Source: a virus
Taxonomy: Duplodnaviria > Heunggongvirae > Uroviricota > Caudoviricetes
Virus record (IMG/VR): IMGVR_UViG_2617270959_000008
Direction: 5' to 3' (one strand)
Length of the DNA: 10,101 nucleotides
The translations under genes were made by a program, and so were the position numbers. Below are positions 2,497-9,949 of this stretch, piece after piece; position 1 is the stretch's first letter; each line of letters begins with the position of its first letter. The notes below the pieces were generated by a model, which was not told where the DNA came from, made no database searches, and was given only the letters and a program-made list of their open reading frames with translations.

Positions 2497-3090
2497 CTAA
2501 AATATGGATGTTAAATAATTGCTAAGTCTTTTTGCATTCTTACAGAATGCCAAAGCATCTTCCTGAGTACATAAGAGCTTTCCTTGGGATATAGGCTTAA
2601 TAGACTCTCCTGTTTTTTCATAGAGCTTAACAATGTCACTAGAAATTTTGTTTGCAGATTGGACATTTTTCAAGGCAGCGATACCTGAAGCCCGCCCTAA
2701 AGATGTCCCGTTGATCTCAATCCCCTTTTTAGATGCAAGCGTTATAGCGGTTAACTCCAATTCGCGCCAAGCTGAAAGTACAGCAACATTAGGCTGAGTA
2801 CTAGCAAGACTCTCAAAAATATTGAAATTCTCAATGAGTTGTGTCGGCAGGACAGGATTTGTTCCAGGTAAATTTTTAATAACCTCTATACTTTTAGATT
2901 CTATTTCAAACATTTCTTTTTTAAATTTAATCTCATAGTCACCTAGCTTAACTGTATTAAGACGACCTAAAACCATTATTATTTCTTTTTTTAAAGTAAA
3001 AAAGACAATCAAACAAGCAAGAACAATAAATAAAACATTGCCTTCTTTAAGAAGCATCTCTATCCAGTAAAAAAAAGTATAGTCCGTCAT
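2497..3090 (-). CDS. Hypothetical membrane-anchored protein (197 aa, one N-terminal transmembrane helix); moron-type accessory gene of unknown function
   Basis: Long ORF in very AT-rich DNA, where stops are frequent by chance. A hydrophobic helix (NVLFIVLACLIVFFTL) near the N-terminus is followed by a soluble domain. It occupies the slot between the spanins and the HNH/terminase genes. A possible sigma70-like promoter lies upstream on the minus strand (GTGATA -35 at plus 3144-3149, 17-bp spacer, TATACT -10 at plus 3121-3126). Confidence 0.65.
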   Translation of the reverse strand: MTDYTFFYWIEMLLKEGNVLFIVLACLIVFFTLKKEIIMVLGRLNTVKLGDYEIKFKKEMFEIESKSIEVIKNLPGTNPVLPTQLIENFNIFESLASTQPNVAVLSAWRELELTAITLASKKGIEINGTSLGRASGIAALKNVQSANKISSDIVKLYEKTGESIKPISQGKLLCTQEDALAFCKNAKRLSNYLTSIF

Positions 3091-4282: not shown

Positions 4283-4609
4283 TTACTCCTTAGAGCCACC
4301 AAACTTATTACCGATTACTCTCATTGCAGCCCCACGAATAGCATCGACACCGATCAACCCAACGCCACCACCAATGGCAACAGAAAGCGATTTAGGCCAT
4401 CCGACATACTCAAGAGCGGATGCAAAAGTCAGCGTCAGAGCGCCACAGAGTAGAATTTCGAGTGTTTTTCGCTTCCAGCCACCACCACCGCCAAAATAGG
4501 CAATGCGCAAACCAGCCATAACGATCGACATAATCACTGCGCCCAGCGGTGTGTCTCCACGCCACCAGCTCTGGACCAACTCCAACCAGGTATTTGGGTT
4601 ATGAGGCAT
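4283..4609 (-). CDS. Holin, class I, lambda S family (divergent)
   Basis: 108-aa ORF immediately upstream of the endolysin. Three predicted transmembrane segments and a charged C-terminus (RVIGNKFGGSKE). The pattern resembles lambda S105 but with low identity. Confidence 0.8.
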   Translation of the reverse strand: MPHNPNTWLELVQSWWRGDTPLGAVIMSIVMAGLRIAYFGGGGGWKRKTLEILLCGALTLTFASALEYVGWPKSLSVAIGGGVGLIGVDAIRGAAMRVIGNKFGGSKE

Positions 4610-4761
4610 TTGTAGTTATCTCTCACCTCGCTGATACAGCAGGTGCAAATTGAGGGAACATCATGTACCGCAAATCAGAAGCGGAAACGTCAAAGAAGCC
4701 GAACCAATGGATAACTGCGGAATAGGCCAGAACCAACGAATCCCCAGCCCCAGAAACGACA

Positions 4762-4782
4762 AAACCCGCTCGACGCGGGTTT
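4762..4782 (-). terminator. Intrinsic-terminator-like hairpin, stronger on the minus strand, about 150 nt upstream of the holin
   Basis: 8-bp stem AAACCCGC (4762-4769) pairs with GCGGGTTT (4775-4782) around a 5-nt loop. On the minus-strand RNA the stem is followed by UUUUGUCGUUUCU. On the plus strand the downstream tract is weaker. Confidence 0.4.
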
Positions 4783-4827
4783 AAGCTGTGTGGCGAAGTA
4801 ACCACTCTTAACACGATACAATACTTT

Positions 4828-4856
4828 TTGCGTACGCGTTAAGATTTTTTTATAAT
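4828..4856 (+). promoter_or_regulatory. Candidate sigma70 promoter for the large island-B gene
   Basis: TTGCGT (4828-4833), 17-bp spacer, consensus TATAAT (4851-4856), about 70 nt upstream of the ATG at 4926. Plausible own promoter for the cargo gene, but AT-rich DNA yields such matches easily. Confidence 0.35.
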
Positions 4857-4925
4857 TACTTACCTTTCTCACACCAAATGTAAAAGCAATATTTTTTGAT
4901 AATCCTGTTGTTTAAAGGGAATAGC

Positions 4926-7900
4926 ATGAAATCAATTGTACACTTATCCGACTTACACTTATCAGACTCAAAAAAATATGGTTTTCACTGGAAGAAAGCC
5001 AAAGAACTGGTCACAGTATTAGTTAATGATATACATTCATTAAGTAAAGAAAACAACCTCCAGATAGATGCCATTTTTTTTACTGGGGATTTAACGTTTT
5101 CTGGAACCAAAGAGCAATTTCAACTATTTGATGAACATTTCCTCTCTCCACTTATTCAAAAGCTGAACATCAGTAAAAAAAACATTTTTATAACCCCAGG
5201 CAATCATGATGTGGACAGAAGTAAAGTTCATCCACTTGAAAAACAACTGCGAACTGGTTCGGACGAAAATTTCATATCATCATACTTTGATATGATAAAT
5301 AATGGAGAGTATTCATGGGAACGTCTCTACGAGTACTGTGAATATAATAAAACAATATTAGATCATCATTCTGATGTTGAACAATCTGGACGCATGATTA
5401 CATGCTTTAAAGTAACAAACAAATTATACGTCGTTAGCGTAAATAGCGCATGGTTAGCTATGGATGATAATGATATTGGTAACTTACGAATTACCCAAAA
5501 GCAAATTGATTTTATCAATCGTGCCAAAATACCTTCTGATGCAAAAATAATATTATTATGCCATCATCCTTTAGATTGGTTGAATAAGAATGATCGTGAC
5601 ATTTTTTCAACATTTATTGAAAAAAAAGTTTCAATGTTCTTTTTTGGTCATATGCATGATTTTAAACAAAAACTAGAATCTAGTTTTTGTGAAAACATCA
5701 CCCTCTTTTTGCAAGCAGGAACTTTGGATACTAGTGAAAATGTATCAGGCTATTCATTAATAAATTTTAATAGTTCAAATGTCATATCAGACGGAAGAAT
5801 TTTTTATAGAAAATATAATAAAGAAAAAACATGCTATGAACCATGGGAAGAAAGAGGAAATGGTGGTGTTTTTGATTTCACCACTGAGAAAACTCTAACT
5901 TTTGACTCTGAAAAATTTGCAACATTATCTAATGAGATTCTAGAGAAAACTGATAAGGATTTATTAATTAACATTGGAATCTCTGATGAAAAGAAAAAAA
6001 GTCTAAGAACTCTATTTACTGAACCAAATTTCCTTGAATTTGCTCTTGGAGCCATGCCTTCTATGGAGATTAAGTCCACACAAGAATTACTAGAAGGACG
6101 AAACAACCTTGTGATTGTAGGAAACCATAGCTCAGGTAAAACATCTCTTTTAAAATACCTATTCATTAAGAGTCTAGAAAAACAGGCCTGCAAAGACTTC
6201 AGTAACTTTGCATTTTTCTTAGATTTAAATGCAATTGAATTAAATAGATTAAATACAATTGTAAGCGCATTATGTACACAATATTTCAATGCAGATTCGA
6301 CCACATCTTTTGAAGAAAAAATTAAAAAAATGTTACATGAGGGAAGATGTGTTATATATATTGATAATCTGGACAATATAAATACAAAAGAACAATGTGT
6401 AATTTCTGATTTTTTTATAAAATTCAAAGAATGTAGATTTATCGTAACTGCTGGCTATAATAATTCAGATCTGGTAGTTAAAATATTATCAGATGAAAGC
6501 AAAGCTAAATTTCATGCAATTGCTATAGGTTCATTACGCAGATCTAATGTTCGCGATATTGTATCAAGATGGCACGACACAACATCACAAAATATAATAT
6601 ACAAAGAAATCACGCGAACAATCAACAATTCGCAACTTCCTCATAATTATTTTACATACTCAATGCTTTTAGCTATTTATGAAGTTGATCATGACGTTAA
6701 AGGAATATTAAGTGAGTCTGATATTATAGAAAACTTCATAGAAATTTTGCTTCGTAAACATTTTATGGATACTCCGCCTAATAAGCCACAATTTAAAGAA
6801 CTTCGGCATTTTCTTGGATATTTAGGATTTACATTATTCAAAAACAAATGTAATTTTATTTCAAATAATGATCTTCTGCAGACTGCAATAATTTTCAATA
6901 GAGATACCATGCATGATTATCAAGTAGAAGACTATATAAAACCATTAAAAGAATGTGGAATATTGAAAGAAGAGCTATGTAATGTGATTTTCTCGCAGCC
7001 TTGCTTTTTATACTATTCCATCGCTTATTTCATGAAGCATAACGAAGAGCTAAAGAAAGAAATTTTATCCGATAATAATTATCTACATCTACATAAAGTT
7101 ATTGAATACTATTCATCGCAGAACTCATCTAGTCTTGATTTATTATACTTACTTAAAAAGAAGACTAATGCAATCAAATCTTCTTTATCTGAACGAATGC
7201 TCGAAGATAAGGGAATAAATATTGAAGATATAAAGATTGAAGACTCTAATACTTTCTCTATTTTAGATATGGTATCAACCCAAGATGATTTCGAAAAAAA
7301 GATAGAATCACTCCGTGCAGATAGAGAAAAAGATGACGCGCGACTAGATGAATTATCACCTTTATCTGATAAAGATAAAAAAGCTAATATATCAAATGTT
7401 AGAGCGGAAGGTAATAATAATCTGTTACATGATCTTATTAACACTTTATCTCTTTATGCAAGGGTATTCCGTAGTACTGAATTATCTATGGAAAGAGAAA
7501 ATATATTAAATATATTTAATGACCTTGTAAAGGGTTATGTTTTTTACATGAAAGCGTCACTAGTACTAATGGATGATTCATTTGTTCTTCCAGTAATACT
7601 CCCTGCATTAGAAAAGAAAATGCAAGAGGATAAATTAACCGATAACGAAAGACAACGAGTTTTTGAAATGTTTAAACTAGTATTGTCTTTAGTTCGCTCA
7701 ATGATCCCAAATAACATACAGTTTATTATGAGCAATGACTTAAGCTCGAAAAAACCACGTATTGCAAACATTATTACTGAATCAAAAGACTCAAATAGCA
7801 ATCCTGTAGAAAAGGCTATTTTAACTTTCACCTTAATGGATATTAAAGATGAAATGGTTATACAATTAGCTAACGATTTAGCAAAGATACAAAACAAAGT

Positions 7901-8078
7901 TGTTCAAGAATCTCTTTTCTTCAAGATTAATCAAATTATAACAAGTAACTATGATTTAAAAAGAACTGAAGAAGAAGCATTGAAAGAGTTAGCAAAAAAC
8001 ATTGGCATTAAAAGAAAATTAATTCTCACACCCAAGATTAGTGATGCCTTTAATACGTTAAACCGCATAGGACATTAA
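4926..8078 (+). CDS. Large fusion protein (about 1050 aa): N-terminal SbcD/Mre11-like metallophosphoesterase domain + central P-loop NTPase (STAND/AAA-like spacing) + about 450-aa helical C-terminal region; candidate single-gene anti-phage defense protein
   Basis: Uninterrupted 3.15-kb ORF in about 27% G+C DNA. The ATG at 4926 has an AAGGGA ribosome-binding site; the ORF-track start at 4896 is a TTG. Metallophosphoesterase motifs are all present: IVHLSDLHLS (DxH, 4950-4958), FFTGDLTF (GD, 5085-5090), GNHD (5199-5210), CHH (5562-5570), GHMHD (5646-5660); the first three resemble SbcD/Mre11. Walker A is VGNHSSGKTS (6120-6146) and Walker B is CVIYIDNLD (6351-6374). Confidence 0.9.
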   Translation: MKSIVHLSDLHLSDSKKYGFHWKKAKELVTVLVNDIHSLSKENNLQIDAIFFTGDLTFSGTKEQFQLFDEHFLSPLIQKLNISKKNIFITPGNHDVDRSKVHPLEKQLRTGSDENFISSYFDMINNGEYSWERLYEYCEYNKTILDHHSDVEQSGRMITCFKVTNKLYVVSVNSAWLAMDDNDIGNLRITQKQIDFINRAKIPSDAKIILLCHHPLDWLNKNDRDIFSTFIEKKVSMFFFGHMHDFKQKLESSFCENITLFLQAGTLDTSENVSGYSLINFNSSNVISDGRIFYRKYNKEKTCYEPWEERGNGGVFDFTTEKTLTFDSEKFATLSNEILEKTDKDLLINIGISDEKKKSLRTLFTEPNFLEFALGAMPSMEIKSTQELLEGRNNLVIVGNHSSGKTSLLKYLFIKSLEKQACKDFSNFAFFLDLNAIELNRLNTIVSALCTQYFNADSTTSFEEKIKKMLHEGRCVIYIDNLDNINTKEQCVISDFFIKFKECRFIVTAGYNNSDLVVKILSDESKAKFHAIAIGSLRRSNVRDIVSRWHDTTSQNIIYKEITRTINNSQLPHNYFTYSMLLAIYEVDHDVKGILSESDIIENFIEILLRKHFMDTPPNKPQFKELRHFLGYLGFTLFKNKCNFISNNDLLQTAIIFNRDTMHDYQVEDYIKPLKECGILKEELCNVIFSQPCFLYYSIAYFMKHNEELKKEILSDNNYLHLHKVIEYYSSQNSSSLDLLYLLKKKTNAIKSSLSERMLEDKGINIEDIKIEDSNTFSILDMVSTQDDFEKKIESLRADREKDDARLDELSPLSDKDKKANISNVRAEGNNNLLHDLINTLSLYARVFRSTELSMERENILNIFNDLVKGYVFYMKASLVLMDDSFVLPVILPALEKKMQEDKLTDNERQRVFEMFKLVLSLVRSMIPNNIQFIMSNDLSSKKPRIANIITESKDSNSNPVEKAILTFTLMDIKDEMVIQLANDLAKIQNKVVQESLFFKINQIITSNYDLKRTEEEALKELAKNIGIKRKLILTPKISDAFNTLNRIGH

Positions 8079-8104
8079 AATGCCACTTTTTTGATATAAT
8101 TAAA

Positions 8105-8126
8105 AACCACCCGTAACAGGGTGGTT
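8105..8126. terminator. Hairpin terminator between convergent genes; stronger in the minus-strand direction (candidate tR'-like late terminator and/or terminator of the large plus-strand gene)
   Basis: Perfect 8-bp stem AACCACCC (8105-8112) pairs with GGGTGGTT (8119-8126) around the loop GTAACA. The minus-strand RNA has a downstream U-rich tract (UUUUAAUUAUAU). The plus strand has an A-tract before and a weak UUCUCU after the stem. The hairpin lies 27 nt after the stop of the large gene. Confidence 0.5.
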
Positions 8127-8181
8127 CTCTACCTCTGCTGCAATATATCTCAAATAATTAAAACGAGCAGGAATTTACCTA

Positions 8182-8361
8182 TCAAAAAACTTGACTACCG
8201 GAATTCGAATTTAAAACCCCATTAGTCTTTTTAGGTTTTGTCATTTTCAAATTAGCTTTCATACTACATGCCATAAAATATTGGGTAAGAAAAATGGTAT
8301 TTAAATAATTCCAAGAAGTAGTTTTATCATAAAAATAATTAATTCTTTGTTTCTTATTCAT
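8182..8361 (-). CDS. Hypothetical small protein (59 aa) with a strong Shine-Dalgarno sequence, between Q and the hairpin terminator
   Basis: ATG at 8361-8359 is preceded by AAGGAG with a 5-nt spacer; the ORF-track start is a GTG at 8367. Product MNKKQRINYFYDKTTSWNYLNTIFLTQYFMACSMKANLKMTKPKKTNGVLNSNSGSQVF is Lys/Asn-rich with one hydrophobic stretch. No recognisable homology. Confidence 0.4.
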   Translation of the reverse strand: MNKKQRINYFYDKTTSWNYLNTIFLTQYFMACSMKANLKMTKPKKTNGVLNSNSGSQVF

Positions 8362-8592
8362 GCACACTCCTTAGTAAAATATAGAAATAAAAGACAAATC
8401 ACTTATAAATGTCATGTTAAAAAAATTCTCATCATGATTATTGATGAGTGATTTTATATTATCAAAAAATTATATTATTAACAACTCTTGTTTATTACTC
8501 AACCAATACCAAAATCATTAGCCACGCATATATATTTTCAAACATATAAAAACAACACACAATATAAAATCCAGCCACAAAAACTCGCACTT

Positions 8593-8937
8593 CTATTTTA
8601 TGAAATAAAAACACCCTTCAATAAAACCTAAAGCAGTTTGCAATTCCTTTCTAATCGTACCGTCCGAACATTTTCGCTTCTTCGCAATAGTTCTAAGCGA
8701 AATACCAATAACAAAATGAGCTATAATTAGCTCATATTCCTCTGGTTTATACTTGCGCAACCGAGCCACACAACTATCTATCATAATGCCTTCGTCATCA
8801 TCACACTGAATCCGGGACTTTTTGCCATGAGGTAAAAGCCCCTTGAAGCCAGCGGCTACCGGTTGCCAATCCACACCACTGTTATCTGCTGCAGCCCATG
8901 CTCCCCAGCGGTCCAATACTTCATACATATCACGCAT
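8593..8937 (-). CDS. Late-gene antiterminator Q, QuuD-type
   Basis: Product MRDMYEVLDRWGAWAAADNSGVDWQPVAAGFKGLLPHGKKSRIQCDDDEGIMIDSCVARLRKYK... aligns with my recollection of E. coli DLP12 QuuD (MRDIQMVLERWGAWAA...AAGFKGL...CSDG...). The ATG at 8937 has a GGAGA ribosome-binding site 6 nt upstream; the ORF-track start at 8952 is a TTG. It lies immediately upstream of the lysis cassette region. Confidence 0.8.
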   Translation of the reverse strand: MRDMYEVLDRWGAWAAADNSGVDWQPVAAGFKGLLPHGKKSRIQCDDDEGIMIDSCVARLRKYKPEEYELIIAHFVIGISLRTIAKKRKCSDGTIRKELQTALGFIEGCFYFIK

Positions 8938-8954
8938 CAACTTTCTCCACAAAA

Positions 8955-9542
8955 TCAGGCCAGCACGCCAATTGCCAGCGCACGATCGATAAAACGAAAT
9001 ATCAGCTCCAGCTGGGAGCCATACTTCTCTTCAAATGCCACGGTATCCGCATGCAGCTCGTCGTGATGCTTTCTGCACAAAGGCAACACAAAGAGGTCAT
9101 GCGCTTTTGTACCCATTCCACCCTGACCGTGGCCTATCAGGTGGTGGGGATCATCAGCAGGCTTTCCACAACATGCACACGGCTGTGTCTTAACCCAGCG
9201 CGTGTACTTTTCATTAACCCAGCGGTGACGTTTTGGGCGTAACATAAAAGACTCCGGCGACTCCGGCTCCACTTTCAGCGCCAGCACCTTTTTCGCTTTA
9301 TCCTGGATGATGCTGGTGGCAGGAACCGAAGGAACAAGGTCACTTTCCCGGGTGACAGACGGCACTACAGGCTTCGGTAATCTCAGTGCCTTACGGGCTG
9401 CACTTTCCGGTAAGGCATCCGCCAGGTCATTACGAACCAGCCACCAGCATAGTTCCGGCATTGTCACAACGTGACTATCATCAAAACCGAGATCCCGACG
9501 CACAACAGACAACATCCAGCGGGCACAGTTATCCGTTGCCAT
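8955..9542 (-). CDS. DUF968-like phage protein, C-terminal Cys/His-rich (HNH-like or zinc-binding) portion
   Basis: 195-aa ORF containing CACCGKPADDPHHLIGHGQGGMGTKAHDLFVLPLCRKHHDELH, which I recall as the conserved core of DUF968 proteins found next to Q in lambdoid prophages. Its stop lies 15 nt from the Q start. Confidence 0.7.
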   Translation of the reverse strand: MATDNCARWMLSVVRRDLGFDDSHVVTMPELCWWLVRNDLADALPESAARKALRLPKPVVPSVTRESDLVPSVPATSIIQDKAKKVLALKVEPESPESFMLRPKRHRWVNEKYTRWVKTQPCACCGKPADDPHHLIGHGQGGMGTKAHDLFVLPLCRKHHDELHADTVAFEEKYGSQLELIFRFIDRALAIGVLA

Positions 9543-9949
9543 TGATTCCAGCCATTCGTGAACTGATCGCGCAGCTGGTTATCGCAGTGCCAGCACAGAC
9601 GGATTGCGCCCGGCGCGTGTCGCATTGTGGTCATGTTCTCGCTGTGCCAGTCGGAATGAGGCCACTGGCAGCCTTTTTCACGAAGTAACCAGCTTTCAAG
9701 ACATTCCACTCCACCAGCACGACGGATCACTGCCTCATTGCGGAACACGGCCCGAACGGCAGGATCATCCGCCAGCGGTTGTGATGCTGCCGGAACGGCA
9801 CCACTGGCGAAAGATGAATAACGTTCCGGCTCAGGCTCCAGCAGGACACGCCCCTGCATAAACAGGGGCATCAGCTCTGAACCTGGTCTGAACAATACGA
9901 TCCCCATACGCGGGGCAATTTCAGGGGTCAGTAGTGCTCTCACGGTCAC
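9464..9949 (-). CDS. Hypothetical phage protein (161 aa); may be the N-terminal part of the DUF968-like gene separated by a frameshift, or an independent overlapping gene
   Basis: GTG start at 9949 preceded by a GAGGTGA ribosome-binding site that overlaps the stop of the upstream gene. Contains CWHCDNQ. It overlaps the 8955-9542 ORF by 79 nt in a different frame. Confidence 0.5.
   Translation of the reverse strand: MTVRALLTPEIAPRMGIVLFRPGSELMPLFMQGRVLLEPEPERYSSFASGAVPAASQPLADDPAVRAVFRNEAVIRRAGGVECLESWLLREKGCQWPHSDWHSENMTTMRHAPGAIRLCWHCDNQLRDQFTNGWNQWQRITVPAGCCLLCVGISVLMIVTL

Follow-up and report, generated by a model that had tools for sequence, protein, structure and literature searches.

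The small ORF at positions 8182–8361 of the window, a 10,101-nucleotide stretch of an E. coli lambdoid prophage with its late genes on the minus strand, is probably a genuine translated small gene that belongs to a mobile cassette of two genes. Its companion there is a PDC-S60-type cargo gene, which runs towards it on the opposite strand. The cassette would occupy a cargo hotspot between the antiterminator gene Q and the target promoter of Q, pR', beside the holin gene, and because it lies between the two the small ORF would not be part of the Q-controlled late leader. The features concerned are the following.

8593–8952, minus strand: antiterminator Q of the Q21/Q933W family (PF06530, E = 1.2e-45)
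8437–8484, minus strand: two overlapping candidate sigma-70 promoters for the small ORF (promoter scan)
8421–8448, minus strand: weak hairpin of 7 bp (−7.6 kcal/mol) with a T7 tract, between Q and the small ORF (scan and folding)
8367–8372, minus strand: Shine–Dalgarno sequence AAGGAG, 5 nt 5' of the ATG, with an equally spaced strong Shine–Dalgarno sequence in all positional counterparts
8182–8361, minus strand: small ORF, 59 aa plus stop (read from the strand; the Rahnella ORF is homologous; annotated by PGAP as a hypothetical protein)
8105–8126, no strand assigned: GC-rich hairpin between the convergent small ORF and cargo gene (folding; an equivalent is present in the homologous loci in which the gap was read)
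4926–8078, plus strand: cargo gene, encoding a 1050-aa protein with a metallophosphoesterase and a NACHT/nSTAND4 NTPase (PADLOC PDC-S60 match)
4845–8608, no strand assigned: AT-rich island with the cargo gene, hairpin and small ORF (approximately 25–34% GC against approximately 50% in the flanks)
4813–4842, minus strand: putative late promoter pR' (conserved in every locus of this Q type)
4752–4782, minus strand: strong intrinsic terminator with a T-tract, approximately 150 nt 5' of the holin gene (folding and comparison)
4283–4609, minus strand: lambda-family holin, the first late (lysis) gene after the putative pR'–tR' (family match and annotation)

The minus strand begins with a frameshifted DUF968 gene (9949–8955), followed by Q (8952–8593), the small ORF (8361–8182) and the hairpin (8126–8105). 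After the plus-strand cargo gene it continues with the holin gene (4609–4283), lysozyme, Rz/Rz1, an unknown gene, an HNH endonuclease and the small terminase subunit. The Q protein is only distantly related to that of phage 21 (E = 0.0015 to the 21Q structures 6JNX and 6P18). The cargo protein matches the PADLOC PDC-S60 model over its full length (residues 4–1029, E = 1.3e-97); PDC-S60 is itself a computationally defined candidate anti-phage system. The AT-rich island measures 3.8 kb, lies between Q and the lysis genes and replaces the last 5 or so codons of Q. The region is 98–100% identical to a prophage found in 16 of 5,426 complete E. coli genomes, and a blastn search of 50,697 phage records with the segment from Q through the ORF to the hairpin gave no match.

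Read on the minus strand, the Shine–Dalgarno sequence is joined by the spacer tgtgc (8366–8362) to an ATG codon (8361–8359), which opens a frame of 59 sense codons closed by TGA, the stop included ending at 8182. The original prediction had described AAGGAG, a 5-nt spacer, an ATG at 8361 and 59 codons, and all of these are confirmed. The same applies to its placing of the ORF in an AT-rich interval after Q (20–25% GC over 8300–8600) and to the hairpin with a U-tract about 55 nt beyond the ORF, which is found 56 nt past the stop. A GTG start at 8367, listed by the ORF tool, was rejected as not credible because it overlaps the Shine–Dalgarno sequence. The NCBI (PGAP) entry for the small ORF is WP_033866695.1, ‘hypothetical protein’.

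Homologues of the cargo gene occur across the Enterobacterales and beyond, and the DNA around 18 distinct homologues was read, 11 with a cargo identity of at least 48% and seven with at most 46%. A convergent ATG ORF of 39–59 aa, preceded by a Shine–Dalgarno sequence, lies downstream of the cargo stop at every one of the 11 closer loci, which span six genera, and the end of the small ORF is 10–103 nt from the cargo stop. The Shine–Dalgarno sequence varies over these loci (AAGGAG, GGAGG, GGGAGG, GGGGGG, GAGGAGG, GAGGTG and AAGGAAG). A GC-rich hairpin is present between or across both stops in the nine loci whose gap sequence was written out, the L029 gap being excluded. Under criteria that were fixed after the first cases had been seen (an ATG-initiated ORF of 39 aa or more, preceded by a Shine–Dalgarno sequence, on the same strand and ending no more than 110 nt from the cargo stop), the chance expectation is indicatively 0–0.7% per locus in shuffles. 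For the window, a comparable ORF arises in 0.2% of shuffles, made with dinucleotide content preserved, of the 320 nt that follow the cargo gene. No convergent small ORF was found at the loci of the more distant homologues (0/7). Distant PDC-S60 homologues work, if at all, without the small ORF, an observation that counts against a partner model.

Six of the 11 loci have Q on one side of the cassette and the lysis genes on the other (E. coli, Rahnella, Citrobacter, Enterobacter and the loci L029 and L033), and the remaining five have no Q nearby. These comprise an island by an integrase gene in Pantoea, L032 with neighbours that include an MqsA-type antitoxin gene, L034 beside a resolvase gene, the end of a Proteus prophage near int/xis, and an island in Providencia. 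In prophages with a Q that is 80–89% identical to that of the window and with other cargo, the small ORF is absent. Because it is present without Q and absent with other cargo, the small ORF belongs with the cargo gene and not with Q. Co-variation with Q was tested and not found; the ORF follows the cargo instead. Similarly, the sequence groups of the small ORFs agree with the clades of the cargo protein. Enterobacter, in a Q context, and L034, in a non-Q context, share 81% cargo identity and have small ORFs that are recognisably related. As an alternative the original prediction had proposed that the small ORF is a partner of the adjacent cargo gene, and this is supported by its co-inheritance across 11 loci and six genera, the loci without Q included. 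These comparisons support a mobile, convergent two-gene cassette. Scanning genome contigs with the cargo protein gave no match, and an alignment-based scan gave only three distant loci. None of the PADLOC models matches the small ORF, and PDC-S60 is modelled there as a single gene.

Between E. coli and Rahnella the small ORFs can be aligned over 46 aa with no gap, at 39% identity (E = 3e-8, z = 11 against shuffles). Nucleotide identity at the first, second and third codon positions is 0.52, 0.59 and 0.33 for this pair, and 0.75, 0.72 and 0.56 for Enterobacter and L029. The 120 nt 5' of the E. coli and Rahnella ORFs show the similarity of shuffled sequence. As far as aligned sequences can tell, this codon-position pattern in combination with dissimilar upstream DNA is a signature of selection on the protein. 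A different view is that the selected element is non-coding, either a terminator or insulator that protects the 3' end of the cargo gene or an RNA that is antisense or overlaps at its 3' end, and that the open frame is incidental. The hairpin is indeed the most constant feature, similarity between the ORF groups is undetectable, and within E. coli substitutions accumulate in the small ORF as fast as in the flanks. However, a frame of 39–59 codons with a well-spaced Shine–Dalgarno sequence recurs in 11/11 loci, at a chance of no more than 0.7% each, in AT-rich DNA that is rich in stops; the codon positions are asymmetric; and the ungapped E. coli–Rahnella protein alignment contrasts with upstream DNA that is no more alike than shuffled. 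Nor did Rfam covariance models, applied at gathering score, give a match anywhere in the window. Conservation of the frame in homologues was a check suggested with the original prediction, and both frame and Shine–Dalgarno sequence are kept wherever cargo identity is at least 48%. Together with the codon-position pattern this disfavours the non-coding reading that the prediction had also allowed, and we give that reading very little probability.

Among the 16 genomes that carry the region, the small ORF is intact in the copies read, five from E. coli chromosomes and two from IMG/VR, and the sole indel among them lies outside it. Three alleles are found in E. coli (Y19H; K45N or K45M), codon 45 having changed twice. 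Only four substitutions are seen within E. coli, two synonymous and two non-synonymous; they are as dense as those in the non-coding flanks, so that no recent purifying selection can be seen.

By sequence, four groups of small ORFs can be distinguished. G1 consists of E. coli and Rahnella, G2 of Pantoea and L032, and G4 of Proteus and Providencia; G3 contains Citrobacter, L033, Enterobacter, L029 and L034 together with two database entries known by sequence only, and its pairs score z = 3.9 to 22 against shuffles. Homology between the four groups is not demonstrable (hhalign E = 0.05–0.4; Smith–Waterman scores no better than shuffles). A single homologous family is not claimed, as pairwise Smith–Waterman alignment and hhalign failed to join the groups; they are positional counterparts, which may have a common ancestry or may be mere positional analogues. 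Divergence is much faster in the small proteins than in the STAND protein, a cargo identity of 63% corresponding to approximately 35–39% between small ORFs, and the Enterobacter and L034 small ORFs are clearly less similar than their cargo. A single-sequence search of 5.8 billion proteins with the small ORF returned only an allele with 95% identity. Only cassette-linked ORFs were returned by a word-indexed profile search of the same 5.8 billion proteins and by an exhaustive HMM search of 1.84 billion representatives, in which none was named or carried a Pfam domain. Two weak matches to long proteins look spurious and were discarded. Searches of Pfam, PADLOC and PHROGs with the small ORF and its counterparts gave nothing significant, and a profile search of the PDB with the small ORF found no relative.

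The predicted small protein is basic, with a pI of 10.0 and a net charge of +8, and has a GRAVY of −0.63 and a highest 19-residue Kyte–Doolittle mean of 0.71. All family members are likewise basic (pI 9.3–10.6) and hydrophilic, with no transmembrane segment (all below 1.4 on the same measure). The basic, Lys/Asn-rich composition is partly a default output of AT-rich DNA. AlphaFold2, run on an alignment of 14 sequences, predicts with modest confidence (mean pLDDT 66) a single helix formed by residues 13–40 and flanked by disordered tails. Two known types of small protein were considered and rejected. A type I toxin peptide does not fit a protein that lacks a hydrophobic membrane-spanning segment. 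A type II antitoxin would be expected in an upstream, same-direction operon, whereas the two genes are convergent and tail to tail in all 11 loci, and an antitoxin domain of this type is not indicated by a single predicted helix with no Pfam, PHROG, PADLOC or PDB relative.

It is also conceivable that the small gene is real and translated but unrelated to STAND function, for example encoding a small nucleic-acid-binding protein with a host or phage target, and merely hitch-hikes in the segment. The convergent orientation and separate promoters suggest independent expression, a basic protein with a single predicted helix would fit nucleic-acid binding, and no homology to known partner families was found in Pfam, PADLOC, PHROGs, the PDB or the protein databases. 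A hitch-hiker should nevertheless be lost or swapped, as the flanking DNA is, whereas the pairing is kept down to 48% cargo identity and across at least five unrelated insertion contexts. The tail-to-tail geometry and the shared hairpin are constant across these contexts, and the family occurs nowhere else among the 1.84 billion representative proteins. An independent gene is therefore considered unlikely, and the two-gene cassette is preferred.

The hairpin between the two genes of the cassette (8126–8105, AACCACCC-tgttac-GGGTGGTT) folds on the minus strand at −17.2 kcal/mol (z = −4.05, a value matched by 0/200 shuffles), and UUUUUAAUU comes after it. For the plus strand the folding energy is −14.4 kcal/mol, and the tail, UCUCUACC, is a poor U-tract. 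The hairpin is likely to serve both genes as a bidirectional terminator, its U-tract being the better one on the minus strand. A simple terminator scan of the window does not list it. The weaker hairpin at 8421–8448 may be a leaky terminator; its T-tract is T7 or T8 depending on the strain.

The first of the two candidate promoters of the small ORF is TTGTTA-17-TAATAT with a TG extension (8484–8456) and the second is TTGATA-17-AATAAT (8465–8437). Promoter-like matches between Q and the cargo gene number four, against 4.7 expected in shuffles of this AT-rich DNA. A plausible sigma-70 site is found in most small-ORF loci, with the end of the −10 element 22–48 nt 5' of the ATG. Its position is constant in the four Q-adjacent G3 loci (Citrobacter, L033, Enterobacter and L029), and in Citrobacter and L033 the site overlaps the 3' end of Q. 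In the loci without Q the small ORF must have a promoter of its own. Read-through from Q into the small ORF is also likely, because only the weak hairpin and its T7 tract intervene in the window and no hairpin does so in Citrobacter and L033, where the small ORF begins approximately 30–35 nt past the Q stop. The small protein may thus be made in the lysogen without Q, on grounds other than those of the original prediction. A repeat search of 8050–8650 revealed no operator-like repeats of note.

The proximity to Q raises a further possibility, that the Q (delayed-early) transcript has the small ORF as its final gene, whose product silences the STAND sensor of its own prophage at lytic entry. 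BstA/aba is a precedent for self-immunity elements in prophage defence loci. The short distance from Q in Citrobacter and L033 makes read-through hard to avoid, and in the window Q and the small ORF are parted only by the hairpin of −7.6 kcal/mol. On the other hand, the small ORF pairs with the cargo gene in loci that lack Q and lie outside recognisable late or early operons, and most loci have a plausible promoter of their own close to the ATG. Such a self-immunity role tied to the Q transcript is considered improbable. In the preferred cassette the small ORF would probably be transcribed from its own promoter in the AT-rich spacer, to which read-through from the Q operon may add in lytic growth.

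The position of the late promoter was assessed by comparison with more than 1,200 E. coli genomes that carry Q genes 80–89% identical to that of the window. DNA homology to these relatives ends approximately 15 nt before the Q stop codon. In these prophages and in the phages SfII, mEp460 and vB_EcoS-569R4, an unrelated reverse-strand cargo starts 12–30 nt after Q, or overlaps Q; examples are a TIR and caspase pair, a TIGR04255 protein, a nucleoid-associated protein and various hypothetical proteins. Because cargo abuts or overlaps Q in the relatives, there is no space for a promoter between the two. The block that is common to all loci of this Q type instead starts exactly at the lysis-side end of the cargo (TAACGCGTACGCAAAAAGTATTGTATCGTGTTAAGAGTGGTTACTTCGCCACACAGCTT) and is situated between the cargo start and the lysis genes. 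It consists of TAACGCGTACGC, TAnnnT at 18-nt spacing and then GTTAAGAGTGG, and is found across E. coli, Shigella phage SfII, Rahnella, Citrobacter and Enterobacter, in loci whose cargos and holins differ. Each locus with this Q type, including Rahnella, Citrobacter, Enterobacter and two metagenomic loci with unrelated holins, has a single copy of the 12-mer TAACGCGTACGC, on the late strand; the loci without Q have none. An alignment of 12 sequences of the block has the invariant columns CGTACG and T-A-n-n-n-T. The ACG directly before CGTACG and the C directly after it are 90% conserved, only the DLP12-like sequence differing, and T-A-n-n-n-T lies 18 nt past the hexamer TTAACG, matching the expectation for a −10 element.

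In the window the putative pR' is made up of the −35 hexamer TTAACG (4842–4837), the palindrome GCGTACGC (4837–4830) and the −10 hexamer TATCGT (4818–4813), and the palindrome in the spacer is a candidate Q-binding element. A consensus promoter scan misses this site, which has 8/12 matches and an 18-nt spacer; the assignment is one of conservation and not of consensus strength. In the E. coli loci the conserved block is followed by a terminator of the form AAACCCGC-N5-GCGGGTTTTGTCGTTT, which in the window is the hairpin AAACCCGC-gtcga-GCGGGTTT (4782–4762) and is likely to be tR'. The placement of pR' at 4842–4813 and tR' at 4782–4762 is, on this comparative basis, probable. PA-2 and the lambdoid phage Lambda_4C10 have a block of 74% identity before an S21-type holin, with ACGTACGT replacing GCGTACGC, and both have an OmpD/Lc porin gene in the reverse-strand cargo position. 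In phage 21, the founder of this family of Q proteins, the element bound by Q is located in the spacer that separates the −35 hexamer from the −10 hexamer (PMC6606751); its reported repeat, TGAGCA, was not found in the conserved block. A different Q-binding sequence is expected, because the window Q is only distantly related to 21Q. A literature search for promoter mapping at DLP12 essD/quuD yielded nothing usable.

This placement bears on the central proposal of the original prediction, in which pR' lies just past Q, the hairpin at 8126–8105 acts as tR' and the small ORF between them is expressed constitutively in the lysogen without Q. Canonical cassettes of the Q21/Q933W family and of lambda do put pR' directly after Q (bioRxiv 10.1101/651190; PMC6606751), and promoter-like hexamers and two U-tract hairpins are present between Q and the cargo gene. 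However, these hexamers are no more frequent than in shuffled sequence (4 against 4.7), and nothing past Q is conserved with the 80–89% identical relatives, in which cargo abuts or overlaps the Q stop. In every locus it is a Q-linked promoter-like block and terminator next to the holin that are found, the same type of ORF accompanies the cargo gene where there is no Q at all, and late transcription would need an antisense run of 3.2 kb through the cargo gene. From the placement of pR' and tR' it follows that the small ORF is upstream of the late promoter and that the hairpin at 8126–8105 is not tR'; by comparison, the pR'-like block and its terminator lie 3.3 kb downstream of the small ORF in the late direction. 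Neither the pR'–tR' interval just past Q nor the role of that hairpin as tR' is thus upheld: the Q-linked block is near the holin, and the strong terminator at 4782–4762 follows it. A late promoter downstream of the ORF is the outcome that the prediction itself had named as speaking against it, and this is where comparative sequence data place it. Expression of the small ORF from a late leader is accordingly very improbable.

The arrangement resembles lambda-type Q/pR'/tR' regions (the 6S RNA leader of lambda, phage 21 and 933W) in having a PF06530 Q, a promoter-like block, a terminator and a holin. It differs in that the promoter–terminator block is separated from Q by the 3.8-kb cargo island and does not follow it directly, and the small ORF is in the island upstream of pR' and not in the leader. 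As with the Q-binding element of phage 21 (PMC6606751), the conserved element of the window is in the spacer between the −35 and −10 hexamers, but it is a palindrome, GCGTACGC, where that of phage 21 is a direct repeat of TGAGCA. The island also has the properties of ‘moron’ cargo (lc of PA-2, nmpC of DLP12 and stx of Stx phages), which is foreign, compositionally distinct and found at the same genome position. The lc and OmpD-type porin genes are transcribed against the late direction, as is the cargo gene of the window. PA-2 and Lambda_4C10 have the conserved block before the holin, and Lambda_4C10 has the same layout. In contrast to these loci, the cargo of the window is a convergent two-gene cassette, the small gene of which has no counterpart there.

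The large protein, a full-length match to PDC-S60, has the effector–NTPase–sensor layout that is usual in antiviral STAND/NLR-like single proteins (Avs, bNACHT). No description of a conserved small convergent partner limited to one PDC-S60 clade was found, and ‘PDC-S60’ itself gave no literature match. In toxin–antitoxin and self-immunity accessories (type II antitoxins; BstA/aba) a small, fast-evolving factor is likewise locked to a potentially toxic defence protein. Compared with type II antitoxins, the small ORF of the window is convergent, not upstream and co-transcribed, and has no recognisable antitoxin fold or family. Type I toxin small ORFs share with it an overlapping convergent transcript, but the small protein is hydrophilic and basic and has no membrane-spanning segment. 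The convergent orientation is unusual for functional partners, which counts against a partner model. What is already known is that the small ORF is annotated as a hypothetical protein, that the cargo is a catalogued candidate and that the space between Q and the lysis genes is well known as a place for cargo. Two points appear to be new: in one clade of a STAND system supposed to consist of a single gene, a small convergent gene is a conserved companion; and comparative data apparently place the target promoter of a Q subfamily beyond a cargo hotspot.

In the proposed mechanism the two genes of the cassette end tail to tail and the GC-rich hairpin probably terminates both transcripts. The product of the small ORF would be a basic, soluble protein of approximately 50–60 residues with a single predicted helix, evolving much faster than the STAND protein. 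It may act on the STAND protein or on its expression, whether by inhibition as an ‘antitoxin-like’ brake or in the role of immunity factor or cofactor. Where the two mRNAs overlap at their 3' ends, antisense control could be a further layer. That the small protein modulates the STAND protein or its mRNA is put forward tentatively, the favoured form being one in which it acts on a potentially toxic effector as a brake or immunity-type partner. This version is preferred because of the strict co-inheritance, the fast, co-diverging evolution and the restriction of the family to the cassette. Fast co-diverging evolution is typical of interacting or antagonistic partners. Stated more fully, and with the same reserve, the small protein might be the regulatory half of a two-component STAND cassette, a co-evolving brake, ‘guardee’ or immunity factor encoded on the opposite strand. 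If infection caused it to be lost, displaced or diluted, or if it were induced with Q, the STAND protein would then be switched on or off.

Antiviral STAND/NLR-like proteins are generally treated as self-contained single-gene sensors. As a by-product of the comparison, the likely late promoter and Q-binding element have been located for a Q subfamily that is common in E. coli prophages. With a defence-cargo hotspot between Q and its own target promoter, cargo in the reverse orientation would be tolerated and would not be crossed by late transcription. If the partnership is true, the partner gene implies an extra level of control, by which a dangerous effector is kept off or the carrier prophage is shielded from its own sensor, and the large gene cloned alone may misreport the behaviour of the system.

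The AT-rich island downstream of the antiterminator gene Q contains a large cargo gene, which encodes a metallophosphoesterase domain joined to an nSTAND4/NACHT NTPase domain.

Window about 4845-8608: AT-rich island with the cargo gene, standing in for about five codons at the 3' end of Q
Window 4926-8078, plus strand: cargo gene, a full-length match to the PADLOC candidate PDC-S60

Homologues of the cargo protein with 57-64% identity are found in Rahnella, Citrobacter and Enterobacter prophages, likewise between Q and the holin. In strain JNEC-KY177 (L002) the gene is annotated as two CDSs (9447-9713 and 6562-9429), with the break close to the N-terminus. This strain nevertheless keeps an intact small ORF, of the K45M allele.

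Amino-acid changes in the small ORF among E. coli strains fall at two codons, and a weak hairpin lies between this frame and Q.

Window 8227-8229: codon 45 of the small ORF
Window 8305-8307: codon 19 of the small ORF
Window 8421-8448, minus strand: weak 7-bp hairpin (-7.6 kcal/mol) with a T7 run after it

Codon 45 shows two distinct non-synonymous changes, from AAG (Lys) to either AAT (Asn) or ATG (Met), and codon 19 a change from Tyr to His. That codon 45 has been hit repeatedly is notable, though the changes are few overall. In strain 6409 the T-run that follows the hairpin is T8; across the 591-nt region, the compared strains show no other indel. Together, hairpin and T-run could form a leaky terminator or attenuator of read-through from Q.

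Different small ORFs are observed in two other genera.

L014 (Rahnella) 2579-2767: 62-aa Cys-rich ORF (CxxC...CxxC), located after the putative pR' and ahead of the holins
L021 (Pectobacterium) 6477-6779: acidic ORF of 100 aa that has a strong Shine-Dalgarno sequence, after the cargo homologue and in the same direction

The Rahnella ORF is followed by a strong terminator, and the late leader region of this locus does contain an ORF, unlike that of the window. The Pectobacterium cargo homologue is more distant (42% identity) and lacks a convergent small ORF; the acidic ORF behind it may be a different accessory gene.

Two further genes of the window lie outside the island.

Window 2497-3090, minus strand: 197-aa ORF between Rz/Rz1 and the HNH endonuclease gene
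Window 8955-9949, minus strand: DUF968 gene upstream of Q, split between two ORFs that overlap (9949-9464 and 9542-8955)

The DUF968 gene is labelled 'frameshifted' by PGAP in the identical strain 300033, and relatives have an intact 330-aa gene. The 197-aa ORF has no match in Pfam or PADLOC. At its position strains JNEC-KY177 and 2014C-3338 have two different reverse-strand hypothetical genes, a pattern suggesting that cargo is also exchanged at a second hotspot, on the downstream side of the lysis cassette.

Related prophages (L004, L005, L006, L007 and L010) hold different reverse-strand cargo in the gap between Q and pR', including a TIR and caspase-family pair, a TIGR04255 protein accompanied by two hypothetical proteins, and a nucleoid-associated protein. 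Each adjoins or overlaps the Q stop codon, and the gap is therefore a sharp-edged exchange hotspot. A conserved block lies at its far side.

Window 4752-4842, minus strand: conserved promoter-like block, with a strong terminator after it

The block consists, in order, of TTAACG, a spacer containing the invariant palindrome GCGTACGC, TAnnnT at 18-nt spacing, and GTTAAGAGTGG in the initial transcribed region; the strong terminator comes after it. Every locus that has this Q subfamily, in four genera, carries the block as a single copy, and other loci lack it. Block and terminator together provide a candidate for pR', the Q-binding element, the pause site and tR'. With the block as candidate pR', the defence-cargo hotspot would lie between Q and Q's own target promoter.
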